A DNA stretch of 64,000 nucleotides from positions 1 to 64,000 of the forward strand of contig JASFYR010000021.1 in NCBI GenBank assembly GCA_045047115.1. Direction: 5' to 3'. How positions within the stretch are numbered: position 1 is the stretch's first letter; each line of letters begins with the position of its first letter. The DNA comes from Sulfurospirillum sp. Lineage in GTDB: Bacteria > Campylobacterota > Campylobacteria > Campylobacterales > Sulfurospirillaceae. The translations under genes and the position numbers were made by a program. Under the pieces are notes generated by a model. That model worked only from the letters and a program-made list of their open reading frames with translations, was not told the origin of the DNA and did no database searches. Positions 1-52,489 of this stretch are shown one piece after another.

Positions 1-428
1 ACTCTTTGTCTCTGACCCCCTGAGAGTTCAGTAACCTTCTTTTTTTCAAACCCTTGAAGACTGACTCGCGCGAGCATATCAGTAACTCTATCATTTATCT
101 CCGACTTGCTGAGTTTTTGTCTTTTGAGTCCAAATGCAACATTTTCTCTCACATTCATCATGGGGAAAAGGGCTAAACTCTGAAATACAATATTTACAGG
201 TCTTTTTTCAGGAGGAATTCCCGACATGGATTCATCTCTAATAAATATCTCTCCTTCACTCTCTTTAATAAAACCCGATATCATTCTAAGAAGTGTTGTT
301 TTACCACAACCTGATGGTCCGAGAATTGAAAAAAAACCACCTTCATCGACATCAAAACTTACATCTTTTACAGCCGTAAACTCTTTAAACTCTTTTGTAA
401 GATTCTTTATCTCCAATATTTTGCCCAT
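1..428 (-). CDS. potA: Polyamine ABC transporter ATP-binding subunit (runs off the window edge)
   Basis: Not in the ORF track. Manual translation from ATG 428 gives MGKILEIKNLTKEF...ILGPSGCGKTTLLRMISGF...KRPVNIVFQSLALFP...LSGGQRQR (Walker A, Q-loop, signature). Lies downstream of a PotD-like gene. Confidence 0.85.
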   Translation of the reverse strand, partial: MGKILEIKNLTKEFKEFTAVKDVSFDVDEGGFFSILGPSGCGKTTLLRMISGFIKESEGEIFIRDESMSGIPPEKRPVNIVFQSLALFPMMNVRENVAFGLKRQKLSKSEINDRVTDMLARVSLQGFEKKKVTELSGGQRQR

Positions 429-12004: not shown

Positions 12005-12454
12005 TTACAGATTACCTATTGTATCTTTTGCAGTAGATGTAGCTTTTAATGTTTTTGAACACTCAGGGCATATACCAAGCAAAGAGATACTGCTTGTCTC
12101 CACTTTAAAATTACACCCCTTGGTAGCTTCATCTATGATACCTTTTGTATCTACGATTTTATCTATTATTTTATTACAAATTTTACAAACAAGATGTATA
12201 TGAGGCATTTTTGTAATTTCATAATTAGTAGGCATATCAGGAATTTTTATCTCAGTAACAAGACCAATTGCTATCAATTCTTTAACATTTCTATAGATAG
12301 TGGCTTTAGATAGAGTTGGATATTTGCTTAAAAGCAGTTCATAAAGATTTTCTATATCCACATGTTTTAAACTATCCATAGTCTCCAAAATAGCTAGCCT
12401 TTGATGTGTCGCTTTTAAATTTTTGTATTTAAGTATATCTCTAAAATCTAACAT
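12005..12454 (-). CDS. Fur-family regulator, PerR-like
   Basis: LKATHQRLAIL, LSKATIYRN, HIHLVCKIC and GICPEC zinc motifs; divergent from peroxidases. Confidence 0.85.
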   Translation of the reverse strand: MLDFRDILKYKNLKATHQRLAILETMDSLKHVDIENLYELLLSKYPTLSKATIYRNVKELIAIGLVTEIKIPDMPTNYEITKMPHIHLVCKICNKIIDKIVDTKGIIDEATKGCNFKVETSSISLLGICPECSKTLKATSTAKDTIGNL

Positions 12455-12514
12455 ATTTGTCTCTCATACCCCGATAATTTCTTATATTGTAACAAAAAAA
12501 TACTTAAATAGCAG

Positions 12515-12550
12515 AATAATATTTGACATTAATTGATATTAAATATTATT
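12515..12550. promoter_or_regulatory. 36-bp imperfect palindrome, candidate Fur/PerR operator
   Basis: AATAATATTTGACATTAA|TTGATATTAAATATTATT; 15 of 18 positions complementary; lies between divergent starts. Confidence 0.5.
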
Positions 12551-12601
12551 TAAGATAAAACATTATATAATTTACAATTCTAAAAATCTCAAGGAGAACT
12601 T

Positions 12602-13627
12602 ATGAAAAAACTAAATTTAGTTTTAAGTAGTTTATTGGTTGCAAGTGTTGGTTTTGCCGGAGAAAATCTCATATTAAAAGCTAAAAATGCGGGTTTAAAG
12701 CCTATACCTCAAAGTAAATTAGCACTCTTAAAGTTGGTTGATGACCCAAACAATCCTATGACAGATTTAAAGATTGATCTTGGTAAAAAACTCTATTTTG
12801 ATCCAAGACTTTCAAAAAGTGGCATTATCTCTTGTAATACCTGCCACAATCTAGGACTTGGGGGAGTTGATGGCATAAGTGCTGCTACAGGGCATAAGTG
12901 GAGAGCAAATCCCCACCATCTAAACTCTCCAACAGTATATAACTCTGTTCTAAACTCTGCACAATTTTGGGATGGAAGAGCTGCTCATCTTGAAGATCAG
13001 GCACAAGGTCCAATGCAAGCTGCACCAGAGATGGCTTCTCCTGCAAAATTGATAGCACAAAAAGTTAATTCAATACCAGGATATGTAAAAGAGTTTAAAA
13101 AAGCTTACGGAGAAAATGTGAAGATAACTTTCAAGCTTGTGGCTGATACAATCGGTGTTTTTGAAAGAACACTCGTTACTCCATCAAGATATGATGACTT
13201 CTTGAACGGACATCCAAATGCTCTGAGTAAAACAGAAAAAGAGGGGTTAAATCTCTTTATAGACAAAGGTTGTGCATCTTGTCATAACAATATCGGCGTA
13301 GGCGGAACAATGCAACCGTTTGAAGTTGCAAATAAGTACAAATTCGAAAATGTAGGAGATTTTAGAGGTGATAAAAACGGTATGGTAAAAACTCCGACTC
13401 TAAGAAATATAGAAGAGACTGCACCATATTTTCATAATGGTATGGTTTGGAGTCTGAAAGAAGCTGTAAAAGATATGGGATCAATTCAACTAGGTCTAAA
13501 AATCAATAATAAAGAGGCTGGAAAGATTGTAACTTTTCTCAAATCATTGACAGGAAAAAAACCGGATATCTCTTATCCGCAACTCCCGGTAAGTACAAGC
13601 AAAACACCAAAACCGGATATGAACTAA
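12602..13627 (+). CDS. ccp: Di-haem cytochrome c peroxidase, copy 1
   Basis: Signal peptide; LGKKLYFDPRLS, SCNTCH, QFWDGRA, GCASCH, KTPTLRN, TAPYFHNG. Confidence 0.93.
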   Translation: MKKLNLVLSSLLVASVGFAGENLILKAKNAGLKPIPQSKLALLKLVDDPNNPMTDLKIDLGKKLYFDPRLSKSGIISCNTCHNLGLGGVDGISAATGHKWRANPHHLNSPTVYNSVLNSAQFWDGRAAHLEDQAQGPMQAAPEMASPAKLIAQKVNSIPGYVKEFKKAYGENVKITFKLVADTIGVFERTLVTPSRYDDFLNGHPNALSKTEKEGLNLFIDKGCASCHNNIGVGGTMQPFEVANKYKFENVGDFRGDKNGMVKTPTLRNIEETAPYFHNGMVWSLKEAVKDMGSIQLGLKINNKEAGKIVTFLKSLTGKKPDISYPQLPVSTSKTPKPDMN

Positions 13628-13634
13628 CAAAAAA

Positions 13635-13654
13635 GGGGGAGTTTTAACTTCCCC
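13635..13654. terminator. Stem-loop between the two peroxidase genes
   Basis: GGGGGAGTT-TT-AACTTCCCC. Confidence 0.5.
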
Positions 13655-13676
13655 AAAATCTTACAGGCAGACACAA

Positions 13677-14663
13677 ATGAAATTTATCCTTATTTTATCT
13701 CTAATCATTAGTTTAACTGTTGCAAATAGCGATACAGAACTTTTAAAAAAGGCAAAAAAGGCAAATCTATATCCTATTCCAAGATCAAAAAAACAACTAC
13801 TAAGACTGATAGATGACTCAAAAAATCCCATGACAGATTCCAAGATAAAACTTGGAAAAAAATTGTATTTTGATCCCAGACTCTCAAAAAGCAATCTTAT
13901 ATCTTGCAATACTTGCCATAATCTAGCTCTAGGAGGAGTTGACGGATTAAGTACGGCTACAGGCGATAGATGGAAAGCAAATCCGCACCATCTAAACTCG
14001 CCGACAGTTTACAATGCCGTCTTTGCAAACTACCAATTTTGGGACGGAAGAAGTTTTAGCCTAAAAGAGCAGGCAAAGGGTCCGATACAGACGGTATTTG
14101 AAATGGCGATGCATAGAGATATATTGCCAAAAAAGATTCAGAATATCAAGGGTTACAAAGAGGAGTTTAAAAAAGCTTACGGAAAAAATACAAAGATAAC
14201 TTTTGAACTTATAGCCGATACAATAGCAATCTTTGAAAAAACTCTAATCACCCCCTCAAGATATGATGATTTTCTAAATGGCGATATGAGTGCGTTGAGT
14301 CAAAAGGAGAAAGAGGGTTTAAACACTTTTATAGATTTGGGCTGTACCAGATGCCACAAAGGCATAGTGCTTGGCGGATTTACCCAACCATTTGATACAG
14401 GTAAAAGATACAAATACAGAGATATCGGAGATTTCAGAGGAAACAAAAACCATCTGGTAAAGACCCCTACCCTGAGAAATATAAAAGAGACTGCGCCATA
14501 CTTTCACAACGGAATGGTTTGGAGTCTGAAAGAGGCCATAAAAGAGATGGGCAAGATTCAGCTGCTACTTGGTATAAGCGACAAAGATGCCCAAAAGATA
14601 GAAACTTTTTTAAACTCTTTAACAGGTAGAAAACCAAATATTATATATCCTATTTTACCTTAG
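13677..14663 (+). CDS. ccp: Di-haem cytochrome c peroxidase, copy 2 (paralog)
   Basis: Same motifs: SCNTCH, QFWDGRS, GCTRCH, TAPYFHNG. Confidence 0.92.
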   Translation: MKFILILSLIISLTVANSDTELLKKAKKANLYPIPRSKKQLLRLIDDSKNPMTDSKIKLGKKLYFDPRLSKSNLISCNTCHNLALGGVDGLSTATGDRWKANPHHLNSPTVYNAVFANYQFWDGRSFSLKEQAKGPIQTVFEMAMHRDILPKKIQNIKGYKEEFKKAYGKNTKITFELIADTIAIFEKTLITPSRYDDFLNGDMSALSQKEKEGLNTFIDLGCTRCHKGIVLGGFTQPFDTGKRYKYRDIGDFRGNKNHLVKTPTLRNIKETAPYFHNGMVWSLKEAIKEMGKIQLLLGISDKDAQKIETFLNSLTGRKPNIIYPILP

Positions 14664-15337
14664 TAGCTCATCTCATATACCAATCGTTGCAAATTCGCCA
14701 TATCACTGTATGCTTTAAAAACTCTATCAAGCAGATTTTGAGCAAAAAATATCTCATCTACCTTAAATATTTTATAGGCATACATCGCACCAAAAAGCGC
14801 AAGATAGGAGTACTCATCATTTTTGCCAAAACCTTTTGGAACTCTTTTGTACTTGGGCATAGGTAAAAGGTAACCCATGCTTTTTAGTTTTTCAAGCTCT
14901 ACATGTAGAGCCTCTCTTCTTTTTTCATCTTTTATATACTCTCTATATACTTTTAGAAGTGGGGGTTTAAAATTTCTTATACCCGTTGCCACAAAATACT
15001 CGTTTTCATCATAATGCATATAGAAGCTGCTACTTTGCATTCTGTGATTTTTTCCCTGCCAAAAAAGTAGTCCTATCTTACTTTTCATAGGAGTTTTATC
15101 TTTGCTAAATCTTATGTCTCGATAGATTTTAAACAAAGATCCTCCGACTTTCGGCAGGGCATTTATAGTTGGCACTAAAATCTGAAGTGTCTCCCCCATA
15201 TCTTTTACAAAAGCTCTGTTTGGCTCCAGTATAGACCTCTCCCAGATGTATCTGTGATTAAGAAACCACTCTTTGGAGTTATTGTTTTTTAAATCTTTTA
15301 AAAAATTTATTCCCTCTTTGCTAAAACCGTTAAACAA
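14660..15337 (-). CDS. DUF2461 family protein
   Basis: FLKDLKNNNSKEWF and FKIYRDIRFSKDKTPMK motifs. Confidence 0.85.
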   Translation of the reverse strand: MFNGFSKEGINFLKDLKNNNSKEWFLNHRYIWERSILEPNRAFVKDMGETLQILVPTINALPKVGGSLFKIYRDIRFSKDKTPMKSKIGLLFWQGKNHRMQSSSFYMHYDENEYFVATGIRNFKPPLLKVYREYIKDEKRREALHVELEKLKSMGYLLPMPKYKRVPKGFGKNDEYSYLALFGAMYAYKIFKVDEIFFAQNLLDRVFKAYSDMANLQRLVYEMSY

Positions 15338-16367
15338 TTAAACTCTTCTCCCCTCTTTCACAAACTTCCGCTATGATAGAGCTATAATCATACCCTGCAT
15401 CTTTCAGACTCGCTAAAAGTTTTGGTGCATCCGATGGTGATACTGCTATGAGAAGTCCACCTGAAGTCTGGGCATCATACAAAATTATATCATCATCCAA
15501 CTCTTTTGTATAGCTAACTTTACTCTTAAGATAGCTCATATTGTTGTATGTACCGGCTGGAATTATCCCCATATCTGCCATCTCTGTCGCCTCTTGGAGA
15601 TACGGAATGCTCTCAAAATCAAAAACTATACTCACACGCGCATCTGCCATCTCTGCACTATGCCCAAAAAGTCCAAAACCTGTTACATCTGTACAAGCAC
15701 TCACATCATAATTTTTCATAATTTTTGAAGCCTCATAGTTGAGCTGAGACAATATAGAAACTACATTTTTCACACTTTTATTTTCCAGCATATCAGCTTT
15801 TATAGCGGTTGTGAGTATACCCATACCAAGTGGCTTGGTAAGTATCAAAAGATCTCCGACTCTTGGTGTATTGTTTCTGTATATCTTTTGAGGATGCACA
15901 ATTCCACTGACACTAAGACCATAAAGCATCTCAGGAGTCTCTATGGTATGACCTCCTATTACCATGCCGCCACACTCTATGACTTTGCTTTGTCCGCCAT
16001 CGAGCATCTCTCTTAAAACCTCTTTTGGATGATTGCATCCGTCAAATCCAACTATATTCAAGGCACTCATCACTTCTGCACCCATAGCAAATATATCACT
16101 AAGTGAGTTTGCTGCTGCAATCTGACCATAAACATAAGGATCATCAACAACAGGCGTGATTATATCCACAGTCTGCACAAGTGCTTTATTTTCATCTAGC
16201 TGATAAACTGCCGCATCATCACTGCTGTCCATACCAACCAAAACTCTGCTATCACTACAATCAAGTCCGCTAAGTGCGATGTCCAGCTCACCCGGAGCCA
16301 ACTTAGCGGCTCAACCGGCAGCTTTTACAAACTTGGTAAGTTTTGCATCATTTTTCATTTCTCTCAT
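15330..16367 (-). CDS. selD: Selenophosphate synthetase, selenoprotein (U19)
   Basis: Extending upstream of the track ORF through in-frame TGA at 16311-16313 gives MREMKNDAKLTKFVKAAG-U-AAKLAPG, matching the G(C/U)xxK active site. AAGGAG precedes ATG 16367. Also DDAAVY, GGHT, TDVTGFGL, DAQTSGGLL. Confidence 0.95.
16283..16301 (-). promoter_or_regulatory. Bacterial SECIS-like hairpin of selD
   Basis: UUGGCUC-CGGGU-GAGCUGG, starting 9 nt after the UGA. Confidence 0.65.
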
Positions 16368-16376
16368 CTTCTCTCC

Positions 16377-16964
16377 TTAAAGTGAAACTGTATCTGTATT
16401 TAGAAGCATATCAACTGAGTCGTAGGCATTGCCAATTTCGCCGACTTTTAACTCATCAGTTGGAATATTATAAAAATTCAAACAGAGACCACAACTATAT
16501 ATCTTCACGCCTCTATTCTCTAACTCTTTTAAGTTTTCGATAAGGTCTAAATTCTCCTCTTTTGTAGTTAAAAATACACCTTCATTAACAAATACCAAAT
16601 TTTTAGGAAGTTCCTTAAACTCCAACATGGTCTTTAAAAAACTTTTCATCAAAGTAGTGCCAAGCTCACCATTTCCTATCTTATCGGTTTTAATAAAAAC
16701 TGTTTTATTTAAAAAACTCTCCTCTTTTTTTGGAACAATAGTACACTCATAGCCCTTTATGACAGTAATGAGAGTTTTACCGTCTTGCAGTTCTTCAACA
16801 CTGCTTTCATAGCCTTGCTTAGAGGCAAATCTCTTTACATTTTCAACAGACGAAACAGAGTTTACCAAAACCTCAAGTAAAGAGTCATCTTCTAACTCTT
16901 CAAGTGCTTTTTTAGTCTTTAAAACCGGCTGGGGACAAGCCAAATCACAACAATCAATCTTCAT
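16377..16964 (-). CDS. yedF: Selenium metabolism protein YedF (TusA/SirA + DsrE-like domains)
   Basis: ATG 16964 after AAGGAG; IDCCDLACPQPVLKTKKAL (CPxP); GELGTTLMKSF, FVNEGV, YSCGLC; adjacent to selD. Confidence 0.85.
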   Translation of the reverse strand: MKIDCCDLACPQPVLKTKKALEELEDDSLLEVLVNSVSSVENVKRFASKQGYESSVEELQDGKTLITVIKGYECTIVPKKEESFLNKTVFIKTDKIGNGELGTTLMKSFLKTMLEFKELPKNLVFVNEGVFLTTKEENLDLIENLKELENRGVKIYSCGLCLNFYNIPTDELKVGEIGNAYDSVDMLLNTDTVSL

Positions 16965-16975
16965 AATTATCTCCT

Positions 16976-17737
16976 TTAAATCTCTTGACATATTTCATAG
17001 CCTGCAAGTGCGGCACCAATTGAGCCCATCAACTGAGGTCTATCTGAAACCAATATCTTTTTTTCTAATTTTTTAGACAATAAATGTTTTAAAAATGGAT
17101 TTAATGCTCCACCACCGCTAAAAAATATATATTCACTCTTTGCAACAAATCTTCTAGCCATAGATGATAACCTCGAAGCAATTGAGCTGTGTATGCCGTA
17201 GCATATATTTGCTGCGCTCTCTTTTTTTGCCATCAAAGATATAACTTCTGATTCGGCAAATACAGCACACATACTTGAAATTTCAAGCTCTTTATCTGCC
17301 TCAAATCCTAGATTGGAAAATTTTTCCATATCAAGTCCTATTCTATTTGCTGCAATTTCTAAAAATTTTCCGGTTCCCGCAGCACATTTGTCATTCATCC
17401 TAAAGTCGACAAATCCGCCTGTGCCGTCTAATTTTATCACTTTGCTGTCTTGTCCTCCAAGGTCTATAACCAAATCTGTATCTTGATTATGGAAATATGC
17501 ACCTTTTGCATGGGCTTTGATTTCACTGATAACCGGGCAGGAAAATTTTTCCTCTATCATATATCGTCCATATCCCGTCGCTACTAACATTTCAACTTTT
17601 TTATCTTCCAGATACTCTGCTATGATTTCATCTTGGTTTATAATAGTTGGGATGACAGTTGTATCTATAATGTTTCTGCTTTCATCTATGCCTGTAATCT
17701 TTGTATATGTTGAGCCTATATCAACTCCCCAAAACAT
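16976..17737 (-). CDS. ASKHA-fold [4Fe-4S] ATPase activator (HgdC/BadFG family, DCCP-R-like)
   Basis: GVDIGST, ATGYGR, SEIKAHAKG, DLGGQDSK, MNDKCAAGTG, SSMCAVFAESEVISL. Confidence 0.9.
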   Translation of the reverse strand: MFWGVDIGSTYTKITGIDESRNIIDTTVIPTIINQDEIIAEYLEDKKVEMLVATGYGRYMIEEKFSCPVISEIKAHAKGAYFHNQDTDLVIDLGGQDSKVIKLDGTGGFVDFRMNDKCAAGTGKFLEIAANRIGLDMEKFSNLGFEADKELEISSMCAVFAESEVISLMAKKESAANICYGIHSSIASRLSSMARRFVAKSEYIFFSGGGALNPFLKHLLSKKLEKKILVSDRPQLMGSIGAALAGYEICQEI

Positions 17738-19060
17738 CTATTTTATACCTTTAAATTTTTTTGCTTTTTTCTTAAATGTCAAACTTTCCAAAAATGCCTC
17801 CACTCTGGTTTTAATCTGTCCAATATCTTCGGCAGAATAATCAGATTCTATAACAAGACAAGGTATTCCCTCTTTCTCCAATGCTTGGGTTACAAGGTGT
17901 GCTTCAACATTGTATGTATGGCAAAATGATAAAGTGTAGTATATCACTCCATCGGCCTGTCTGTCTTTGTACATTTTTAAAATTTTATCAATTCTAGGAG
18001 TATTTGGGGTAAAACATGCACAATCCACCTTACTATATCTTTGCATCAATCTGTCGATAAAGGTATCCTCATCTTCTACATTATCTAAATCAACATTATC
18101 TTTATAATACCTATGTCCTATGCAAGACTCTTCATTGATGATAGCTCCACCAGTAGTCTCAACAGCTGTATGAAGTTTCCAGTTTGGCGGAGCAAACGGG
18201 GTTCCCAAAACCATAAGTCTTGGAGTATCTTTTTCAAAAACACTTATTTTGTTTTTTACTCTCTCATCTAGTTCATCGCAAAGTTGATTGACTTTTTGAG
18301 TGTATCGCACAGGGTCATCCAAAAATCCCATCTGGGTTATAAAGAGTCCGTCTTTTCCACTTATCGGTATAATATCCGGATTCATTCCCCGAAGAGTATC
18401 AAGTCTTTGAAGAGCTTCTCTTTTTTCATTTATGATTTTAGTGCCGTTTTTCATCTCTTCAAGAGTTAATTTTTTACCTATAACTTCTTCAATATGCTCT
18501 TTAAACTCTCTTATCTCTTCACCCCACATTTTAAGATCTTTTTCTCTTTTCATATGAGGGATGTTCATCACATGAACAGGATGATGTTTGTCCAATATTT
18601 CCCAAGTCTTTTTCTTTGCTTCACATGTAGTCTCGCCGTAGATAAAATCGGAAGATTGTGTATATGCACAGGTTCTTTGAAGTTTAAACCCATGGGCTGA
18701 TTTTATAAGAGGACATATATTTCTAGGAAGTTCACTCTCAGCGTCAGGTATAGTAGCAGGACTTCCCCCACAAAGTCCATAACAAGCTCCGCCGGCTCCA
18801 ACTATAATCTCTTCAGGTACAAATATACAAAATGTACCAACAGCCGGTTTCTTTTGAGCTCTTAACTCATTTATCTCAGCTATTCTTTCGCCCTGAATCT
18901 CACTCATAAACCAATCAAAATACTCCATCCCTTTTGGTCTATTTGGCTGAGATAAAAACTGTTTTTTATATGACTCTAATCCCGCAGACATCATTTTTGC
19001 ATGTTTTTCAACATCCACACCGATACTAGATAATAAATCTTTATGTTGCTCTAGACCCAC
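17738..19060 (-). CDS. Double-cubane-cluster protein (DCCP)-like reductase, 2-hydroxyacyl-CoA dehydratase superfamily
   Basis: GTFCIFVPEEI, GLCGG, LPRNICPLIKS, GETTCEAKKK, EESC, DCACFTPN, FCHTY, GQIKTRVEAF. Single-chain protein directly abutting the activator gene. Confidence 0.8.
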   Translation of the reverse strand: MGLEQHKDLLSSIGVDVEKHAKMMSAGLESYKKQFLSQPNRPKGMEYFDWFMSEIQGERIAEINELRAQKKPAVGTFCIFVPEEIIVGAGGACYGLCGGSPATIPDAESELPRNICPLIKSAHGFKLQRTCAYTQSSDFIYGETTCEAKKKTWEILDKHHPVHVMNIPHMKREKDLKMWGEEIREFKEHIEEVIGKKLTLEEMKNGTKIINEKREALQRLDTLRGMNPDIIPISGKDGLFITQMGFLDDPVRYTQKVNQLCDELDERVKNKISVFEKDTPRLMVLGTPFAPPNWKLHTAVETTGGAIINEESCIGHRYYKDNVDLDNVEDEDTFIDRLMQRYSKVDCACFTPNTPRIDKILKMYKDRQADGVIYYTLSFCHTYNVEAHLVTQALEKEGIPCLVIESDYSAEDIGQIKTRVEAFLESLTFKKKAKKFKGIK

Positions 19061-19220
19061 AATAAGTCCTTTTATATAGAAAATTTATGCTGAATATATA
19101 AATTATAGATAGAATTAAGTAGAAATATCGAAAGTAGAATGCTTAATTCTTGTATGTCTAAAACCTTAGACCTGACAGCATCTTCGGTATTATATAACCT
19201 ATGTTATAAATTTTAACTTA

Positions 19221-19641: not shown

Positions 19642-20040
19642 CTACTCATCAACCCCTCGGATATAGAACTTGAACGAATCTATCTTTGGTGTTACTGCTA
19701 AATCCTTGAGTATTATCGAGTCTTTTGCATCGATATATACTTCTCTCCAGCTTGATTTATCTTTAGCTATTTCAAAGCCACTCTCATCATACCAAATAAA
19801 CTTATATTCCAAATAGTGTCTGTTTGTATCTCGATTTTTTACCGTAACTCTAGCATCAAGCAGGTTATATACAAATCTTGAATCAGAACCGACTATTTTT
19901 ATATTATAAGACAATGGAATATCATTGATGATAATTGTGTCGCTATCACTTTGAAATGTATTGCTCGCTGTATTATCGTCGGCTTGTACTGCATTTAGAC
20001 CAAACACCAACAGCAAAATAAGTAGTATTTTTTGCATCAT
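19642..20040 (-). CDS. YcfL/DUF1425-like secreted protein
   Basis: Signal peptide; LEYKFIWYDESGFEI...W motif typical of YcfL. Confidence 0.75.
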   Translation of the reverse strand: MMQKILLILLLVFGLNAVQADDNTASNTFQSDSDTIIINDIPLSYNIKIVGSDSRFVYNLLDARVTVKNRDTNRHYLEYKFIWYDESGFEIAKDKSSWREVYIDAKDSIILKDLAVTPKIDSFKFYIRGVDE

Positions 20041-20042
20041 TT

Positions 20043-20480
20043 CTATTTTGCCTTTTGAATACAATTATTTCCACATCCTACTTTTAAGAGAACATCTTTT
20101 GCTTTATAATTCGGAGCATCTAACACCATTCTTTTGGCATCACCGGGATATAGTCTTATTTTTCTCGCTTGCGGATAAGTTGATATCTGCACTCCTCTAT
20201 CATCTGACCATTTTGGATCTACAATTAGGTTATATATATCATCAGAGTTGTTATTTATGATACACTGAAGCTCTCTTCTGTTTTTTCCATATGATATTCT
20301 AGCATCTGTAATCTCAATATTTTTTCTCACCTTAGTATTACTTATAAAGACACTTATGCCCTTAGGGTAACTAGACTCGTAAACTTTGGAAACTCTACTT
20401 ACTCTAGGAGAGTTGTTAGCACATGCACTAAATGTAATTCCTACTGCTACTATTATAATCAAACTTAAACTTTTTCTCAT
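20043..20480 (-). CDS. YcfL/DUF1425-like lipoprotein
   Basis: Lipobox FSAC; KWSDDRG and APNYKA resemble YcfL motifs. Confidence 0.7.
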   Translation of the reverse strand: MRKSLSLIIIVAVGITFSACANNSPRVSRVSKVYESSYPKGISVFISNTKVRKNIEITDARISYGKNRRELQCIINNNSDDIYNLIVDPKWSDDRGVQISTYPQARKIRLYPGDAKRMVLDAPNYKAKDVLLKVGCGNNCIQKAK

Positions 20481-20492
20481 ATTTTCTTCTCC

Positions 20493-21710
20493 TTATTGAA
20501 ATCGAACAACTATTATGTTGTTGCCCTTATCTTTTGCCTGAATCTTGAACCCAATAGCATCAGCCATATCATAGAGATCAAAGACCAAATCATCTGTGTC
20601 TATTTCACTGTTTGTTCCAAAATTATAAACCTGCTCAAAATCCTTACTCTCAGCTGAATTTCTCTTTGGTCTTGCGCCCAATTTTTTTATAACATCTTTG
20701 ACTATTTTTATCTTATTTCTATTTTTAGAGTCATAAGTAACGCCACTAATAATTATAGTATAGAAGTATTTGTATTTTTTTATTTTTGATACTTTTTTGA
20801 CTCTGGTTTTCTTTCTAATACTTCTTAGAATATTGTTTGTAATCTCCCTGCTTGCTATATCAGCAGCTTTCCTATAAAGCTTAAACTTTAACTGGTCTTT
20901 AGTTGCTCCAAAACTCTCTATATCTTTAGAACGGATGGCATTATCAACTCTACCCGTTTGCGTATTTAACATATTCATTCTGTATATTAAAGAACCATTT
21001 AGATTGCCATAACTATCTTTACCTGTAAGATGAAATTTAAGATTTGTTAATTTAAAGAGATAGTTTACACTTTTATTGTTTTTACACTCTTGCAATTTTT
21101 CTTTTATCGCCATTAAAGCACTTTTATAAGCAGAACCCTTTGCTTTATATTTTTTGTATTGTCTCTCTATAGAGGCACATTTATTTCCTCTAGCACCTAC
21201 TTGTGTACCTTTTTTTACAACTCTCAAAGAGTTGCCACTATCGTTTATACTTCCTTGTAGATTTGTTATAAAATCACGGCTTAAATCATTATCCACTTCG
21301 TCTACAAGCACTATATCCAGATTTTCAACGCTATCCCTACCCATAGTTGTGCTACTATTTGATTTTTCAGCAACAATGGCTTTTATCTGCTCAAGATTTA
21401 AGTTTGCTAGGACCAAGCACTCATATCCATCTTCACCCAAGTTATTGCATTTTGTTCTTGGACTTCTAAAGTATGTTTTTTGAAACTCTACAAAATCTTT
21501 ATCCATATCTGCTTTAAAAGACTCTTTAACATTGCCAACATAGCTACTTGCACCCATAATTTTATCTAATGCTTGTTCAAAAACAACCCAATAGGCATTT
21601 TGTATAGCCTCCTGCTTTGTGGGAGCTTGTTCTGCGGCCCTTACTCTTACCATGTTAGCACTCAATGCCATGCACAATATAAGCAGTACTGCTACTATTT
21701 TATTTACCAT
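20493..21710 (-). CDS. Secreted hypothetical protein
   Basis: ATG 21710 coupled to the upstream stop (TAATG); signal peptide; N-terminal 'TKQEAIQNA' resembles the LPP20/FlgT-N helix. Confidence 0.7.
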   Translation of the reverse strand: MVNKIVAVLLILCMALSANMVRVRAAEQAPTKQEAIQNAYWVVFEQALDKIMGASSYVGNVKESFKADMDKDFVEFQKTYFRSPRTKCNNLGEDGYECLVLANLNLEQIKAIVAEKSNSSTTMGRDSVENLDIVLVDEVDNDLSRDFITNLQGSINDSGNSLRVVKKGTQVGARGNKCASIERQYKKYKAKGSAYKSALMAIKEKLQECKNNKSVNYLFKLTNLKFHLTGKDSYGNLNGSLIYRMNMLNTQTGRVDNAIRSKDIESFGATKDQLKFKLYRKAADIASREITNNILRSIRKKTRVKKVSKIKKYKYFYTIIISGVTYDSKNRNKIKIVKDVIKKLGARPKRNSAESKDFEQVYNFGTNSEIDTDDLVFDLYDMADAIGFKIQAKDKGNNIIVVRFQ

Positions 21711-23056
21711 TAATACTCCTTGCAAAATTCTTGATAATCAAAATCAACTATTTTTTTTCTCTGTTTTACTATATTTAAAATTAGATTTTTTAATTTAGGT
21801 GCCATTTTTTCTATGGATTTTCGAAGAGTCTTTGTTATTTTATTTTTTTGGATATAGCTCAACTTATTAACTATATTATATCCGAAACTTGCCTGACCTA
21901 CCGCCATTTTTTTCTTTTTAATTATATCGGATGGTAAGCTCATACCATCTATCTTTTTTTTACCCTCTATAGACAAGACCACTCTTGACGCTATGCTTGA
22001 TTTTATATATCTTCCACTGTTTACATCCTCTGCTTTTACAAGTTTATCATATAACTCGCTAACAATCGCCTCTATAAAATAGCCATCAACATAAACAACA
22101 GAACTTCCACTTTTAATATACGAACAAGTTTTCTTTAGTTTTCTAATCAAAACTTCAGAGTCGTTATCTGTACTTGTATTGATAAATACACTATTTATCC
22201 GTTTTAGATAATCTTTCCAATTTTTAAATATTCTTTTATTTAGCATATCTGGATACAGAAGAACAACATCATCCAGTCTTTTGTCTGCTCTAATCTCTTT
22301 TATAAGAGCCTCTTGCAGGATTATCAAAATCTGTTCTTTAGCACTTTTTTTATCTCCAAAAACCTTTAAAGCTAATTTTTTGGAGTTTTTACCAATTACT
22401 ATCTTGTCTATAGAAAAATATATATCATCACTTGTAAAACTTTTAACTTTTTTGGAGTGCTTATCTGCTATGATTGCATCTATAAGGTCGCCCAAAGCTT
22501 TCTTGTAAAAGTTTTTATATCCTTCTTGTAATTTTTTCTCCCTATTGTCTGTTGGCTGTATACCTAAAAGACCGGTAGTTGTGATACCATTTGTATATCT
22601 TACTTCAAAGTTACTATGCAAATCTACTCGATTTGCCTCTTCTCCAATTTGTACGAATGTTAAATTTAGTGTGATGTAAACAAGCTCTTGACCGCTTGCT
22701 AATGTTGTAGAATTCTCAAATGTATTGATATTTAAAAAACCTATTTTTTTATCAACATCATTAGATTGTAATGTGATTTTTTTATAATTTTTATCAAATT
22801 TATCTTTTAAAATTATATTAAATTTACCAACGCCTAGTTTATCTTTGTAATCATTTTTTAAGATTTTTTCTGTAAATTTACTTAACCCCCAACCATCATC
22901 TCTAGTAGACAGCAAATTGGGAGCGACCAGATTTTTTTCCAAACCATGGGTTGTTTCATTATATGTGCCTATAAAAAGTGTAGGCATATTGTTTGCCAAA
23001 AGACTGCCACTTGACAAAAAAAATATATATAGTAGCAGTCTATGCAGTTTTTTCAT
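21710..23056 (-). CDS. Secreted hypothetical protein
   Basis: 448-aa ORF with signal peptide; no family recognised. Confidence 0.7.
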   Translation of the reverse strand: MKKLHRLLLYIFFLSSGSLLANNMPTLFIGTYNETTHGLEKNLVAPNLLSTRDDGWGLSKFTEKILKNDYKDKLGVGKFNIILKDKFDKNYKKITLQSNDVDKKIGFLNINTFENSTTLASGQELVYITLNLTFVQIGEEANRVDLHSNFEVRYTNGITTTGLLGIQPTDNREKKLQEGYKNFYKKALGDLIDAIIADKHSKKVKSFTSDDIYFSIDKIVIGKNSKKLALKVFGDKKSAKEQILIILQEALIKEIRADKRLDDVVLLYPDMLNKRIFKNWKDYLKRINSVFINTSTDNDSEVLIRKLKKTCSYIKSGSSVVYVDGYFIEAIVSELYDKLVKAEDVNSGRYIKSSIASRVVLSIEGKKKIDGMSLPSDIIKKKKMAVGQASFGYNIVNKLSYIQKNKITKTLRKSIEKMAPKLKNLILNIVKQRKKIVDFDYQEFCKEY

Positions 23057-23068
23057 ACTATGCTAAAC

Positions 23069-23911: not shown

Positions 23912-23986
23912 TTTTTTCCTTACAGATAATTTTAATTTATAAAATGATACAATTTTTAAACTTAAATTTTTCACAAAGGACAATGG

Positions 23987-39837: not shown

Positions 39838-42681
39838 CTACGCTTTTTCTACACGGCATAAGCCGGCTTTTGTTTCAGGGATTTGGGTGATAATATCGTA
39901 ACCATAGTTTGTTACAGTATTCGCTGCCTCACCTATACTATATGGCTCTAATCCCTCCGGATAATTTTCAGCCAAACTTTCTCCTTGCATGACTCCGGCC
40001 CAGTGGAATGGCAGGAAGATTCTATCTTCACTGACAGAGTAAGTAAATCTGGCCCTTACTTTTATTTTAGTTCCCTCAGGAGAGTATATCCACATCATTT
40101 CGCCATCTTTTATGCCATGATTCATAGCAAGATTTGGATTGATATCGCAGAACATTTCAGGGTTATGCTTGGTAAGATATTTCGAGCTTCTCTCTATCAA
40201 ACCTGCACCACTGTGAGTAACAAGTCTCCCTGTTACCAGATTGAGTGGGAACTCTTTTGACCAGTCTTTCTTTTGAATAGATTCATATCTTGTATCAACT
40301 CTATAGTGATTTTTCTTATCTTTATATGTTGGATACTCTTTGGTAAGATCAAATCTTGGAGTATGAAGAGGTTCTCTGTGCATTGGTATCTGATCAGGGA
40401 ATGTCCATACTTTTGCTCTTGCTTTTGCATTTCCATAAGGTGCAACTCCAGCTTTTAGAGCAAGTTCGGCAATCTCATCACTGATGTCAACTTTCCAGTT
40501 TTTACCCATTGCTGCTTTTTGCGCAGAGGTAAGTTTTATGCCTAAGACTTTTTCTATATTATCTTTATGAAGCTCAGGATAACCACCTTCTACTTTTGCA
40601 TTTTTGATGGTTGCTCCATCTCCTGCAAGCTGATTTACGCCATCATGTTCGAGACCAAATCTATTTCTAAAACCCATACCTCCCATATTTACCGGAAGAT
40701 TTACATCATAAAGTACTGGGCTTCCACCGTGGGTTGTTGTCCAACAAGGCCAAGGCAGTCCGTAGTATTCACCCTTCATCGGTCCCATTCCGGCAATATT
40801 TACTTCATCAAACATATGCCAGTTCTCTTGATGTTTTTTAAGCCTGTCATAAGTCCAACCGGTAAGTCCGATAGTTTTTATGATTCTAGCAACCTCGTCA
40901 ATACCGTCTTTTGGCCACACAAAACTATCTTTTGCTTTTACAAGTTTTCCCTCTTTTTTGTTGGCTTTGAGTTTCATTCCAGCTACAAATTGATCATAAT
41001 AACCAAACTTTTTAGCAAAAGCAAACATTATCTCTTCATCTGTTTTGCTTTCATACATCGGATCTACAACTTTACTTCTAAGTTGAGCACTTCTGTTTGT
41101 TGCTGTTACTGTTCCTTCTCCCTCAAATTGAGTGGCAGTTGGAAGGATATAGACACCATCTTTTTTATTTGTTATGATAGCCGCCTCATTTGCAAATGGC
41201 TCGGCTACAACTATAAGATCAAGTTTATCAAGGGCTTTTTGTACACTTGCCTGTCTTGAGATAGATGTTATACCATTTCCCTGGACCCAAAGAGCTTTTA
41301 TAGGAGAACTCGTGTGAATTGGATCTTCTTTTATGACACCTTCATACCAGCGAGCTAGTGTAAATCCTTTGGTATTCATCCATTTCTTAGCTTTAAATCT
41401 TCCTTTTAACCAATTATAATCAACGCCCCACTGTTTAGCAAAATATTTCCAAGAACCATCACTTAGTCCATAGTAACCCGGAAGAGTGTGTGACAGACAG
41501 CACATATCTGTGGCGCCTTGAACATTATCATGACCTCTTAAGATGTTACATCCGCCACCTCGTCTTCCCATATTTCCAAGGGCAAGTTGGAGTATCGGAG
41601 CCATACGAGTATTTGAAGAACCGATGCTGTGCTGAGTTAAACCCATAGCCCAGATAAGAGTTCCGGGTTTGCTTGTAGCAAAAGCTCTTGTAATTTGGTA
41701 GAGCCTCTCTTGAGGAACACCTGTTACATCTTCTACTTTTTGCGGAGTCCACTTTTTAGCCTCTTTTATGACATCATCCATGCCATATACTCTGTTTTTG
41801 ATAAAATCTTTATCTTCCCAACCATTTTTAAAGATGATATGAAGCATACCATACATAAACGGGATATCAGTTCCCGGTCTTATGTGAGCATACATATCAG
41901 CTTTTGCGGCTGTCTTGGTGTATCTCGGATCTACTACTATAAGCTGAGCATTGTTGTGCTCTTTTGCTTTTAAGAAATTTTTGAAACCAACAGGATGGTT
42001 CACCGCAGGATTTGCTCCAAAAATGATAATTGACTTAGCATTTTGGATATCTCCAAGATGGTTTGTCATAGCGCCATAACCCCATGTATTCGCCACACCG
42101 GCGACTGTTGCACTATGTCAAATTCTAGCTTGGTGATCTATATTGTTTGTACCCCACATTGAAGCAAATTTTCTAAAGTAATAGGACTGCTCTGTACTGA
42201 TCTTTGCAGAACCTAAGAACATCGCTACATCAGCACCATTGCTTTTTCTAAGAGACAACATCTTGTCGCCGATCTCATTGATGGCTTGATCCCAACTGAT
42301 TCTTTGCCATTTTCCATCGACTTTTTTAAGTGGATGCTTTACTCTCTTTGCACTCTTTACAGTGTCAATCGAATCGATACCTTTTGAGCAGTGACCACCA
42401 TGACTAAACGGATGCTCCTGCGCCACCTCTTGTCTCACCCAAACACCATTTTGCACTTCAGCTATGATACCACAGCCTACTGAACAAGTTGTACATATGG
42501 TTTTAACCATCTTTGAACCCGGATATGGATCTTTTACCTCTTCTTTTGTAGCTTTTCTAACAGCACTTCCGCCTGCTATAAGAGTTGTTCCGATAGCCGC
42601 ACCACCAAGTGTTGCCATCTTTAAAAAAGATCTTCTTCCAGCTCGCAAAGATAGTTTTTCCAACTTATCTTTACCCATCAT
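39838..42681 (-). CDS. fdhA: Formate dehydrogenase catalytic subunit, Mo/W-bisPGD selenoprotein (U188, 947 aa)
   Basis: Two track ORFs in one frame joined by TGA 42118-42120: NIDHQARI-U-HSATVAG. TAT signal GRRSFLK, CTTCSVGC...HC, LRGHDNVQGATD. Confidence 0.96.
42090..42104 (-). promoter_or_regulatory. SECIS-like hairpin of fdhA
   Basis: UCGCC-GGUGU-GGCGA, starting 13 nt after the UGA. Confidence 0.7.
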
Positions 42682-48666: not shown

Positions 48667-49330
48667 TATTTTAGGAGATTTCAATATTCTTTATCTTGAA
48701 GACGAGCCTCAACTCTTAAAACACACTGCTATGGTTTTGGAAGATTTTGTGAAAAATATATTTGCGGTAGCTACTTGCAAGAATGCTTTGGAAATTATCA
48801 AAGAAAACAAAATCGATATAATCATCACCGATATAAACCTCAAGCACGAAAACGGTATAGAGTTTTTAAAAGAGTTAAAATATGAGCTAGGATATGAAAT
48901 TCCCTCTATAGTGGCAACAGCCTACACAGATACAGAATACCTCATAGATGCCATAAAGCTCAAAGTTGAAGACTATATAGTCAAACCCATAAATCTAAAA
49001 GATTTGCTAAATTCTATACATGATGTGCTCTTGCCTATTGCGCAAAAAAGAGAGATTAAAAAATCATACAATGTAATCAGGACTATCTCAGCCGTCACAG
49101 ATGGAAAACAGGTTGAGTTGGTAAAATTTATACTTAAAAATCTTGATGACGAGTCTATATTTAACTACTCTTACGGAGATATAATGGCTCAAGTGGATGT
49201 AAGCAAACCAACAGTAATAAAGTTTTTCAGGCAACTGTCTCAAAAAGGAATTTTAACAAAGATACAAAATAAAAAGTACTTTTTCAATGAAAACAATCTG
49301 CCGAACCCCAGCGAGGAAATAGATGAATAA
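48647..49330 (+). CDS. Response regulator with C-terminal HTH
   Basis: ATG 48647 after GGAGG; LYLEDE, IITDI, TAY, VKP; HTH SYGDIMAQVDVSKPTVIKFF. Confidence 0.88.
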   Translation: MNKRNLDILGDFNILYLEDEPQLLKHTAMVLEDFVKNIFAVATCKNALEIIKENKIDIIITDINLKHENGIEFLKELKYELGYEIPSIVATAYTDTEYLIDAIKLKVEDYIVKPINLKDLLNSIHDVLLPIAQKREIKKSYNVIRTISAVTDGKQVELVKFILKNLDDESIFNYSYGDIMAQVDVSKPTVIKFFRQLSQKGILTKIQNKKYFFNENNLPNPSEEIDE

Positions 49331-50657
49331 GCTAAGAGATATACCCAAAATAGACAAAATCATAAAAAGAGATATATTTGACAAACTAAATGTTAAACTT
49401 CTCACCAAGATAACAAAACAGAAAACAGAAAAATTAAGAGCAGACATACTGCAAAACAGAATTGAAAAATTTGATGAAGAGACCTTTGCCAAAGATATAA
49501 AAGAGGCCTATGAAGAGATTTTTAAGCCCTCACTAAAGCCGCTCATCAATGCAACAGGTGTGATACTTCATACAAATATGGGAAGAAGTCTCATAAATGA
49601 AGAGATACTCAAAAGAGTCCAGCCTCTTATATGTAACTACTCAAACCTGGAGTATAAACTAGAAGAGGGTTGCCGAGGGGAGAGATACGAGCATGTTAAT
49701 TCTCATCTCAAAAATCTATTGGACATAGAGGATGTTTTAGTGGTAAACAATAATGCAAGTGCGGTATTTTTGATACTCAACACATTTGCAAAAGAGCATG
49801 AAGTTGTAGTATCAAGGGGAGAACTCGTAGAGATAGGCGGAAGTTTTAGAATCCCTGAAGTAATGAGCCAAAGTGGAGCAATTTTAAAAGAGGTTGGAGC
49901 CACAAATAAAACAAAGCTTAGCGATTATGAAGAAGCGATAGATAACAATACCGCAATGCTCATGAAAGTACACCAATCGAATTTTAGCATAGAAGGCTTT
50001 AGCCAAAGCGTACCTTATGAAGAAATTAAAGAGCTCTCTTCGCGAAATAACTTACTTGATTATTATGATTTAGGGAGTGGCTATATCCCTGAATTGCCGT
50101 ATAATCTAGGTAAAAAAGAACCGTCTATTATAGAAATCTTAAAATCAAATCCATCACTTATAAGCTTTAGCGGAGATAAGCTTTTTGGCTCTATTCAAGC
50201 TGGAATCATAGCTGGGAAAAAGGAGTTAATTTCAAAATTAAAACAAAACCAACTCCTAAGAATGTTAAGAGTAGATAAAATAACGCTCTCTTTACTGGAA
50301 GAGACTATAAAAGCCTATCTAAGAGAAGAGTATAAACTTATACCAACTCTACATATGCTTTTTATGACAACAGATGAGCTTAAAAAAAGAGCTCTGCATA
50401 TAGAGGAAAAATTAGGTACAAGTATAGTAAATACTCTGGAAACAAAAACAGTGATGGGTGGAGGCACTCTGCCAAACAGAGAGTTTCCAAGTATTGCCCT
50501 ACATGTAAAGGGCAAAGCTCAACACTTAGAGAGAAAGTTTAGAAAGAAAATGATTATTGGCAGGATAGAAAATGATAGATTTCTGCTTGATTTCAGAACA
50601 ATTCAGCCAAAAGACGAAGAGAGGCTTACCCAAACCATAAGAGAGATAGTAAAATGA
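49323..50657 (+). CDS. selA: L-seryl-tRNA(Sec) selenium transferase
   Basis: INATGVILHTNMGRS, YSNLEY, SRGELVEIGGSFRIP, FSGDKL. Confidence 0.96.
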   Translation: MNKLRDIPKIDKIIKRDIFDKLNVKLLTKITKQKTEKLRADILQNRIEKFDEETFAKDIKEAYEEIFKPSLKPLINATGVILHTNMGRSLINEEILKRVQPLICNYSNLEYKLEEGCRGERYEHVNSHLKNLLDIEDVLVVNNNASAVFLILNTFAKEHEVVVSRGELVEIGGSFRIPEVMSQSGAILKEVGATNKTKLSDYEEAIDNNTAMLMKVHQSNFSIEGFSQSVPYEEIKELSSRNNLLDYYDLGSGYIPELPYNLGKKEPSIIEILKSNPSLISFSGDKLFGSIQAGIIAGKKELISKLKQNQLLRMLRVDKITLSLLEETIKAYLREEYKLIPTLHMLFMTTDELKKRALHIEEKLGTSIVNTLETKTVMGGGTLPNREFPSIALHVKGKAQHLERKFRKKMIIGRIENDRFLLDFRTIQPKDEERLTQTIREIVK

Positions 50658-52489
50658 GACACATCATAGTCGGAACTGCCGGGCACATCGACCATGGAAA
50701 AACTGCTCTTATCGAAGCTTTAACGGGATTTAACGGGGATACGCTTGCCCAAGAGAAAAAAAGAGGCATCACTATAGATTTGAGTTTTTCCAGTCTGCAA
50801 AATGAAGATACAAATGTAGCTTTTATAGATGTACCTGGGCACGAAAAATTGCTCAAAAATATGATTGCCGGAGCATTTGGATTTGATGCCTGCATGCTTG
50901 TTGTCGATGCAAATGAAGGTCTTATGCCCCAAAGTATCGAACATTTAGAAATTTTAAATCTTCTTCAAATAGACAATATCATTGTGGTTCTATCAAAGTG
51001 TGATTTGGCAAATGAAGAGATAAAAAAAACAAGAGAAGCAGAGATAAGAGAGTATATAAAAACTCTGCAAAATTTGGAGATATATAATTTTATTCAAGTA
51101 AGCATATTTGACAAAAACTCCATCGAAAAACTAAGAAGTGCACTGTTTAGCTTGCCACTGAAAAACAAAAAAAACAACGGATTTTTCAGGTACTATGTGG
51201 ATAGATCATTTTCACTAGCAGGTGTCGGACAAGTTGTAACAGGAACACTGCTCGACGGAGAGATAAAAAGAGGTGATAAAGTATTTGCCCCCGAGTTAAA
51301 CAGCGAATTTAAAATAAAAAATCTACAAGTCCACGACAAAGATGTAGATGCGGCAACCACATCTCAAAGAACCGCTATAAACTTACAGGGAAACTCCAAA
51401 AAACCTCTAAAAAGAGGTACGCTTCTTTGCAAAAAAGGTTTTATAAGAGGATTTGAGAGTGTAGATGTTTGGATAGAGTGCATAGGTGGACACGAGATAA
51501 AACACAACTCAACTCTGCATATATTTGTAGGAACAAAACAGGTTGAGGCTAAAATTTTATTTTTAGAAAGCACCCCATCTGCTACAAATGGATTTGCCAC
51601 ACTTCACTTTAGACAAAAACTCTTTTTGGTGCACAATGAGCCTTTTATCATTTCGAGCGGAGGTAGAACCATAGGCGGAGGAAGAGTTCTAAATCCTATA
51701 AACGACCCTTTAAAAAAACGGATGAAACTAAGCTTGCTAGAAGCCCTAAAAAAAGATGACTTTGGCAGTGCTTTTACACTTCTTTGCGCTTTTCACAAAA
51801 AAGGGTTTGGGCTCATCTCATCAAACCAAAGATTTGGACTCAGCCACGAAAATGCAATAAGTCTGGCAAACGATATGGAAAGTGTTTTTGTAGATGAGAA
51901 AAATTTGGTCATCTACCCAAGCGATATAAAAGAGAGCCTGAATGATATAATAAAAAACATATACAAAAAAAATGAGTACGCTCTGCTCTCCGCCAACTCA
52001 CTTAGTTCAAAACTCAAATGGGCAAGCAGTGCTCTGTTGGAAGATGTACTCAACAGATTATGTAAAGAAAAATTTCTCTCTTTTGAAAATGGTATATACA
52101 AAAATGCCAATATCCAAATAGACAACATAGACAAACATATCGAAGATACAATCTATAAAATCCTACAAAATGCAAGCTATACACCAGCAGCTCCTTACAA
52201 CATATACGACGAACTGGACATCGATAAAAAAGTAGGGGATAATTCACTAAAAAAGCTAACAAAAGCAAAGAAGGTTATTCGTTTGGCACATAATATTTTT
52301 GTAGACACACAAGCTTTGACTAAAATAGTCTCATCTTTGAGAGAAATTATGACAAATGAAGGTTTTGTAGATGTGGCATCTTTTAAAAAACACTTTAATA
52401 TAAGTCGCAAATACCTCGTAGCCTATCTTGACTATCTTGATAATTTTGATGATATTAAAAAAGAGGACAACAGAAGATATTTAGTCTGA
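50654..52489 (+). CDS. selB: Selenocysteine-specific elongation factor
   Basis: GTAGHIDHGKT, RGITIDLSF, DVPGHE, C-terminal SRKYLVAYLDYLD winged helix. Confidence 0.96.
   Translation: MRHIIVGTAGHIDHGKTALIEALTGFNGDTLAQEKKRGITIDLSFSSLQNEDTNVAFIDVPGHEKLLKNMIAGAFGFDACMLVVDANEGLMPQSIEHLEILNLLQIDNIIVVLSKCDLANEEIKKTREAEIREYIKTLQNLEIYNFIQVSIFDKNSIEKLRSALFSLPLKNKKNNGFFRYYVDRSFSLAGVGQVVTGTLLDGEIKRGDKVFAPELNSEFKIKNLQVHDKDVDAATTSQRTAINLQGNSKKPLKRGTLLCKKGFIRGFESVDVWIECIGGHEIKHNSTLHIFVGTKQVEAKILFLESTPSATNGFATLHFRQKLFLVHNEPFIISSGGRTIGGGRVLNPINDPLKKRMKLSLLEALKKDDFGSAFTLLCAFHKKGFGLISSNQRFGLSHENAISLANDMESVFVDEKNLVIYPSDIKESLNDIIKNIYKKNEYALLSANSLSSKLKWASSALLEDVLNRLCKEKFLSFENGIYKNANIQIDNIDKHIEDTIYKILQNASYTPAAPYNIYDELDIDKKVGDNSLKKLTKAKKVIRLAHNIFVDTQALTKIVSSLREIMTNEGFVDVASFKKHFNISRKYLVAYLDYLDNFDDIKKEDNRRYLV

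Follow-up and report, generated by a model that had tools for sequence, protein, structure and literature searches.

The 64,000-nucleotide stretch of Sulfurospirillum sp. DNA analyzed here (contig JASFYR010000021.1, positions 1 to 64,000; hereafter the window) carries on its minus strand a tight array of five genes (14660..19060) encoding a double-cubane cluster protein (DCCP), its ATP-dependent activator (DCCP-R), the carrier protein YedF, the selenocysteine (Sec)-containing selenophosphate synthetase SelD and a DUF2461 protein, and the first of these genes is preceded by a conserved leader with a hairpin that resembles a Sec insertion sequence (SECIS) (Table 1). DCCP/DCCP-R pairs carry out ATP-driven reduction, and SelD requires selenide. 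The gene spacing is as described in the initial annotation of this DNA: the DCCP stop codon (17740-17738) directly abuts the activator ATG (17737), the activator stop lies 11 nt from the yedF ATG at 16964, the yedF stop lies 9 nt from the selD ATG at 16367, and selD overlaps the start of the DUF2461 gene by 8 nt. Judging from this spacing, the genes are presumably co-transcribed. Profile matches also bear out the four protein identities that had been proposed.

Going by its sequence, the product of the first gene is a true class-I DCCP, for which the double-cubane cluster and ATP-dependent reduction are predicted. The cysteine motif C78-x18-C97-x18-C116-x29-C146-x166-C313-x33-C347-x32-C380 aligns, residue by residue, to cysteines of PDB 6ENO, and all seven are kept in 38 of 38 aligned relatives; the first interval is 18 residues instead of the 19 of the printed motif, and the alignment against 6ENO is ungapped there. 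The N-terminal extension that closes the CoA channel is present by sequence, the 6ENO alignment being ungapped from residue 6, and in a tree of 131 proteins (made by a quick method, with SH-aLRT support only) the long-form clade holds both the window DCCP and a Carboxydothermus islandicus orthologue. The protein shares the PF06050 family and the activator type with HadBC/HgdAB and the benzoyl-CoA reductases, and is unlike them in its single subunit gene (no second alpha/beta-type subunit gene was found at the locus), its seven cysteines and its score of only 67 bits against HadC versus 469 bits against the DCCP; scores against the dehydratase and benzoyl-CoA reductase families are far under the cut-offs (107 versus 700 and 76 versus 454). 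None of 15 long homologues scanned is fused to a carrier or to SelD. The activator lies over the TIGR00241 cut-off and matches PDB entries 4EHT (162 bits), 9GAI_D (156 bits) and 7YYL_E (154 bits); sequence alone does not set archerase-type ATPases apart from dehydratase activators. The pair is like that of Carboxydothermus hydrogenoformans (6ENO, 7YYL; NF040772) in being full length, with the N-terminal extension, the seven cysteines and an adjacent archerase gene, and unlike it in being joined to yedF-selD behind a SECIS-like leader. At the C. islandicus DCCP locus, neither a selenium gene nor a leader was found.

YedF combines the Pfam TusA (CPxP) and DsrE (CGxC) domains; the carrier motifs CPQP and CGLC, pointed out earlier, are both there, and C10, C158 and C161 are invariant in 21 of 21 sequences. 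The genome encodes selA, selB, tRNA-Sec, SelU and a Sec-type formate dehydrogenase (FdhA); this end user of selenium and selAB do lie in the same window as the operon. In genus g4 of family f1, SelD lacks an in-frame TGA in nearly all genomes though selB is retained, and in the one copy of such a Cys-type selD that was examined a SECIS-shaped hairpin is still formed.

Table 1. Features of the window (strand in the third column; positions are those of the whole stretch).
Feature	Position	Strand	Evidence or remark
Conserved -10 box (TATAAT), likely operon promoter (predicted)	19189..19194	-	Promoter scan; kept in orthologues
Conserved 5' leader, predicted three-way junction of P1, P2 and P3	19075..19187	-	Match to model R2
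SECIS-like hairpin P2, 6-bp stem, GG-containing loop, then ACA	19151..19171	-	Covariation; shared descriptor
Class-I DCCP, 440 aa	17738..19060	-	NF040772 454.3 bits (curated cut-off 350); PDB 6ENO 469 bits over residues 6-426
ATP-dependent activator (DCCP-R / archerase), 253 aa	16976..17737	-	TIGR00241 215 bits
YedF (TusA + DsrE domains), 195 aa from ATG 16964	16377..16964	-	TIGR03527 202 bits, cut-off 110
Selenophosphate synthetase SelD, Sec codon 19 (UGA 16313-16311)	15330..16367	-	TIGR00476; read-through translation
In-frame SECIS hairpin of selD, 11 nt after UGA	16285..16299	-	Fold z -3.3; descriptor match
DUF2461 protein, likely passenger	14660..15337	-	PF09365; not abutting selD in relatives fetched
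Sec-type formate dehydrogenase alpha, outside operon	39838..42681	-	UGA 42120-42118; SECIS hairpin 42104-42090
selA-selB; SelB predicted leader binder	49323..52489	+	TIGR00474, TIGR00475 over cut-off
tRNA-Sec (selC)	284..377	+	ARAGORN; missing from general tRNA listing of the window

Comparison of the upstream regions of orthologues revealed about 110 conserved bases following the -10 box at 19194-19189, and 29 family loci yielded 26 hairpins, 24 of them with a TA[TCA]AAT box ahead; the promoter scan itself was near chance (28 sites versus 20.2 +/- 4.5 in shuffles). The TATAAT at 19107-19102 to which attention had first been drawn exists, and as a promoter it was rejected, as it lies inside the leader and is not kept in orthologues. 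The leader is predicted to fold into a three-way junction, in which, over 22 leaders, 88% of cells are paired overall. Hairpin P2 is 99% paired, with two-sided changes in five of its six pairs, and is predicted by RNAalifold unprompted; the outer stems are 79% and 84% paired, and RNAalifold alone predicts P2 only. A DNA palindrome bound by a transcription factor was rejected on the grounds that the arms covary around a conserved loop, in a test that is partly circular, some of the aligned rows (A3) having been chosen by a pairing scan. Rfam gave no match at gathering score in the window and one at chance level (E 0.98).

The resemblance of P2 to a SECIS is seen in several ways. The leader scan also matched selD 11 nt after its UGA, and the SECIS hairpins of selD and fdhA in the same genome have the geometry of the leader hairpin, which, with its short stem and a G at position one or two of its apical loop, agrees with the SECIS core published for the group, a 5- or 6-bp stem with an invariant G in the apical loop (PMC4607533). 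One descriptor fits all eight SECIS of Sec-type selD and 15 of 19 leaders; in the 2.14-Mb genome it has 54 occurrences and follows nine of 81,374 TGA triplets, including the Sec codons of selD and fdhA. In held-out regions upstream of yedF the descriptor was found in nine of 16, compared with none of the 16 antisense sequences and four of 1,962 upstream windows of open reading frames (ORFs) of the genome, and in five of the seven misses the hairpin is present with a changed tail. When the window leader was left out of the short model (R3), P2 was still the top match in the window (E 0.0019). One further descriptor match lies within the 3' end of selA (window 50458-50480, plus strand), about 190 nt before the selB start, and may be due to chance.

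The genes preceded by the leader were surveyed with a long model (R2), whose training alignment held 15 of the 39 DCCP leaders of the window's family, the other 24 being held out. In the genome studied here R2 matches only two places, the window leader and one on contig C24, both members of the training set; in the family of 61 genomes it matches 53. The leader lies directly ahead of all 39 DCCP genes over the cut-off (including the 24 held out) and of none of the ten lower-scoring DCCP paralogues in the family. In 11 genomes with the DCCP elsewhere or not found, it stands ahead of yedF-selD, and in the three genomes in which the genes form a contiguous run no separate yedF leader was detected, so that two members of the regulon appear to share one leader. 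Among 20 further leader matches that were fetched, 15 precede a transglutaminase-like-(TusA-)MerT-MerP operon, three a rhodanese-CCG-DedA operon and one an ABC transporter, with one unresolved; four other matches precede a PstS-like protein. The leader was found in 11 of 151 genomes of the phylum, and outside Campylobacterota R2 matched none of 68 loci and the descriptor stood ahead of one of 80 DCCP genes. In family f7, model R3 matches 10 of 41 genomes. In the eight of these that were not used for training, the match precedes DCCP in two, a gene for a putative selenate-binding protein, oriented away from selD, in two, an ABC binding protein (by eye like one marked in f1) in one and genes with no other tie to selenium in two, and is intragenic in one; the trained genomes have two further matches inside an ABC gene.

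Several of the marked loci deserve separate mention. On contig C24 (23049-25366) of the genome studied here, the leader stands ahead of genes for a transglutaminase-like protein with a signal of the twin-arginine translocation type, a TusA-MerT fusion and a MerP-like protein, an operon that is a candidate for a thiol-relay selenium importer. Three f7 genomes (L238:1593-2435, L250 and L251) have the hairpin ahead of a TIGR04553 putative selenate ABC binding protein that faces away from selD. Tandem DCCP copies each have a leader of their own (L036:7009 in G021; L028-type loci of G028), and a further copy faces a MetQ-like ABC transporter, a candidate for the uptake of seleno-amino acids. Short copies of the hairpin are situated directly ahead of selA (L060:787), an internal dsrE (L064:7859) and selD (L064:10618); those at selA and the internal dsrE are within about 6 nt of the ribosome site, the closest to the E. 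coli arrangement, and in several copies at yedF, dsrE and selA the distance is about 5 to 30 nt.

The linkage between DCCP and selenium genes is of a looser kind. The initial annotation had proposed to check its idea by the grouping of the protein, the cluster ligands and the conservation of the linkage to selD and yedF; the protein groups with DCCPs and has all ligands, and strict linkage is mostly unconserved, yet the leader is common to the genes. Within the family, a DCCP over the cut-off occurs in 36 of 61 genomes, all of which have selD (56 of 61 overall), and the four-gene run is contiguous in three of the 36 (G000, which is the genome studied here, G004 and G009), selD being at least 19 kb off or on another contig in the others. 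In the phylum sample, 46 of 251 genomes match DCCP and 41 lie above the NF040772 cut-off, so such a protein is not, as had been supposed, unexpected in Campylobacterota; database records of Sulfurospirillum, Arcobacter and Malaciobacter already name homologues double-cubane reductase. When subtypes are taken from fetched loci where present and otherwise judged by score, length and genus, this sample has selD in 15 of 15 genomes with class-I DCCP, 23 of 23 with the short type and two of eight with the third type only. Among the loci fetched outside the family, selD or yedF is close by in four of six class-I loci, in three different orders, and in none of the eight short-type and seven third-type loci.

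Across phyla, the best 80 of at least 659 loci were compared, most of them from Bacillota and 33 shorter than 14 kb, and their neighbors were labeled with profiles built on the same loci, one representative per cluster being checked against the library. In these 80, the genes counted were PF11823 (52 loci), a Sec-lyase-like protein (21), LysR_Se (10), YedF (10), SelD (9) and YedE (3), and 62 loci carry at least one selenium-associated gene. DCCP is therefore found beside yedF-selD occasionally, and beside some selenium-associated gene as a rule. A PstS-like neighbor of DCCP was seen in one of 118 loci and in none of the loci of the genome studied here. The "second YedF" beside DCCP in G048, G054, G067 and this genome was rejected, the proteins being TusA-MerT fusions. 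In two Bathyarchaeia loci (L150:6251-10378 and L152:6242-10371), LysR_Se faces away from DsrE-TusA-DCCP-SelD, and the locus contains no activator gene.

By analogy with E. coli selAB, whose 5' untranslated region carries a SECIS-like element 3 nt from the selA ribosome site (PMC13449736), the leader likely lets SelB with Sec-tRNA repress the genes behind it when selenium is plentiful. The proposed sequence of events is as follows: (i) in selenium plenty, SelB-GTP-Sec-tRNA would bind the leader and repress the operon; (ii) when selenium is short, Sec-tRNA would drop and the leader would be freed; (iii) this release would allow the uptake proteins, the ATP-driven reductase, YedF and SelD to be made; and (iv) the reductase would turn small oxidized selenium species into selenide, which YedF would relay to SelD. 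The locus would then be a scavenging unit for selenium starvation, a reading to which we assign a probability of about 0.5. The wider proposal, that part of the Campylobacterota runs a selenium-starvation regulon through SECIS-mimicking leaders read by SelB, with DCCP as its scavenging enzyme making selenide for SelD, is tentative and falls somewhat short of an even chance.

The functional tie of the DCCP operon to selenium, suggested at the outset, is supported by these data. The initial annotation had offered two explanations of it. The release of selenide from an inert source gains support from the leader and from the uptake genes that are marked along with DCCP; the substrates named for it (selenocyanate or organoselenium) are unsupported by the one deletion data set found (PMC11097638, Table S7), which concerns a gene that is likely a DCCP; the building of selenium into the double cubane is disfavored. 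Neither idea was new, since both had been published as hypotheses: according to section 24 of a preprint (bioRxiv 10.1101/2022.07.06.499078), SelD genomes account for 955 of 970 DCCPs, and a selenium-processing role is proposed there as well as a selenium-bridged cluster. A STRING table for Slackia links YedF and LysR_Se to the activase and an HGD-D subunit (PMC5322559), and the physiological function of DCCPs is described as unknown, with class-I channels that admit small molecules only (PMC7317905, section 2.3). The operon is a new instance of the published DCCP-SelD association, to which the present analysis adds the SECIS-like regulon and its direction.

Expression data from Methanococcus maripaludis are relevant here (PMC11097638). 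On selenium depletion, MMJJ_07100 (annotated HgdB) rises 57-fold in Table S3 of that paper, along with TusD (24-fold), TusA (22-fold), YedE (about 40-fold), DUF3343 (5-fold) and the adjacent PstS-like protein (7-fold), while selenoenzyme genes fall. MMJJ_07100 is absent from the main text of the paper, and its identity as a DCCP is likely but unconfirmed; M. jannaschii, used as a control for the profile search, encodes a DCCP over the cut-off. In strain JpST2, a deletion of MMJJ_07110-07100 (the HgdB-annotated and PstS-like genes), only the response to selenocystine shifted (0.13 versus 0.02; the text of the paper gives 18- to 60-fold for the group), and the no-selenium signal of the starvation reporter dropped from 2.87 to 0.79, other mutants also showing a fall. 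If MMJJ_07100 is a DCCP, its induction favors a starvation role, and the deletion speaks against an essential role for the sources tested.

A number of observations weigh against the scavenging model and its SelB switch. A model built on leaders only places the fdhA SECIS at E 7.9 (rank 8 of 13) and misses the selD SECIS, the leader model being AT-rich and so penalizing GC-rich coding hairpins; the descriptor was written after both kinds of hairpin had been seen, and it also fits a Cys-type selD, so that the selD hairpin may in part reflect protein constraint. About 80 nt separate the hairpin from the DCCP ribosome site downstream, compared with 3 nt in E. coli, and either the outer stems must bring it close or control must be exerted in another way. 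The genomes are kin and not independent, so that the counts overstate the case. As many as 150 of 190 sampled selD genomes have no DCCP match, so the enzyme would be an accessory booster, and two archaeal DCCP-SelD cassettes (LysR-DsrE-TusA-DCCP-SelD loci of Bathyarchaeia) occur in genomes without detected Sec or selenouridine enzymes, SelA, SepSecS and SelU all being under the cut-off in genomes of unknown completeness in which YqeB/C were not searched. In M. maripaludis, the genes most strongly induced by selenium lack are Cys isoenzymes, which are selenium-free stand-ins, and JpST2 still uses selenocyanate (SeCN), dimethyl selenide (DMSe), dimethyl diselenide (DMDSe), selenomethionine (SeMet), selenate, methylselenocysteine (MSec), methylseleninic acid (MSA) and selenite (PMC11097638, Table S7).

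These points can be accommodated by several alternative explanations. The DCCP could be a consumer of selenophosphate, in which case SelD and YedF would install selenium either in the cluster, perhaps as bridging ligand, or in the product of the enzyme. The near-confinement of DCCPs to SelD genomes, the listing of a selenium-bridged cluster as a formal possibility in section 24 of the preprint cited above and the archaeal cassettes all agree with this, and the fall of the JpST2 reporter would fit the loss of a selenium sink. It is nonetheless unlikely, as a sulfide forms the bridge in the Carboxydothermus enzyme, which reduces acetylene (PMC7317905), selenoenzymes fall while the HgdB-annotated gene rises in depleted Methanococcus, and the leader places DCCP among uptake genes; a selenium consumer is not expected among starvation genes, and that the leader marks DCCP together with uptake genes favors scavenging over a selenium-containing cluster. 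We also regard as doubtful that DCCP is a selenium-free stand-in, or a salvage enzyme for internal turnover, that is induced by selenium lack and does not act on imported selenium. The Cys isoenzymes at the top of the induced set and the retention of nearly all external sources by JpST2 are what it would predict, and DCCP occurs only in SelD genomes, most of which can do without it; against it, the neighbor of DCCP is repeatedly a Cys carrier (PF11823 in the cross-phylum loci; YedF, DsrE or TusA elsewhere) or a Sec-lyase-like protein, so that selenium handling fits better than a stand-in role.

A different kind of objection concerns the leader, which might be another element, such as a metabolite or metal riboswitch or the site of another protein, with a regulon for heavy metals or sulfur of which selenium is one part. 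The co-marked operon seen most often is that for MerT- and MerP-like proteins, stems P1 and P3 exceed a minimal SECIS, true SECIS are poorly recovered by the leader-only model, and a 99%-complete genome without selB or selD (G029) retains a weak match (E 0.011). Set against this are the targets of the leader, which include yedF-selD, selD and a putative selenate-binding protein, and its G-containing apical loop on a 5- or 6-bp stem, which is the published SECIS core; we consider this explanation quite unlikely. Lastly, the adjacency of the genes could be a local rearrangement without meaning, DCCP acting on an unrelated small molecule. The run is contiguous in only a single small clade of the family, and YedF or SelD lies within 8 kb in 14 of the best 80 cross-phylum loci. 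This is very unlikely in view of the leader, which is common to the genes even when they are far apart, of the linkage of DCCP with selD or yedF, in varied gene orders, across families f1, f5, f6 and f7 and several other phyla, and of the lack of selD or yedF neighbors in all 15 loci of the other two DCCP subtypes.

Compared with known systems, the predicted scavenging regulon is like E. coli selAB in having a SECIS-shaped hairpin outside reading frames, upstream of selenium genes, in a genome with SelB and tRNA-Sec, and unlike it in that the hairpin marks several operons, is often embedded in a larger predicted junction and stands at upstream distances reaching about 80 nt. Its families recall the LysR_Se/HrsM regulon (NF040786; M. 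maripaludis, PMC11097638), which shares TusA, DsrE, YedE, DUF3343, HgdB-like and PstS-like proteins, all responding there to a lack of selenium; that regulon is under transcription-factor control, and the RNA leader was found only in part of the Campylobacterota. A regulatory RNA sets the present case apart from the two reports of a DCCP-selenium link (bioRxiv 10.1101/2022.07.06.499078 and PMC5322559), which mention none in the sections covered, and the third DCCP subtype, with selD in only two of eight genomes, departs from the SelD rule given in the preprint section cited. The literature search, whose coverage left out most subscription journals and preprint supplements, returned no previous account of the leader, nor any of DCCP expression that depends on selenium. 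The published link between DCCP and selenium is a correlation without direction, which the leader supplies; from it follow predictions about the timing of enzyme synthesis, the substrates worth trying and the growth condition in which a knockout phenotype is to be expected, and it can serve as a simple probe for further selenium-acquisition genes. If the model is true, it would extend the single case of E. coli selAB to a regulon, and would provide, within the literature covered, the first physiological role of a DCCP and the first bacterial multi-operon RNA sensor of selenium status.

With regard to the surroundings of the operon, the DUF2461 gene at its end is likely a passenger by sequence comparison, having been seen in one of 16 family DCCP neighborhoods fetched (G009), three ORFs from selD. 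Tail to tail with the operon (window 12005-14663) are two tandem di-heme cytochrome c peroxidases and a Fur/PerR-like regulator, and it is possible that these peroxidases help an oxygen-sensitive enzyme. Upstream (19642-27444) lie lipoprotein-like genes, comprising two DUF1425, a DUF6844, a CsgG-like domain and three ORFs without Pfam match. After the formate dehydrogenase cluster (33390-45761) come fdhD, a ModE-like regulator, a molybdate/tungstate-type ABC transporter and a rhodanese, and in three relatives this block is found directly upstream of yedF-selD. Elsewhere in the genome, contig C10 (74619-82827) carries a second DCCP-like gene (336 bits, under the cut-off) with an activator; the two close an operon that also encodes a TonB receptor, a DsbD-like protein and two membrane Fe-S proteins. 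Since this subtype turns up in six further loci, lacks the leader and belongs in six of eight cases to genomes without selD, its role is probably unrelated to selenium.

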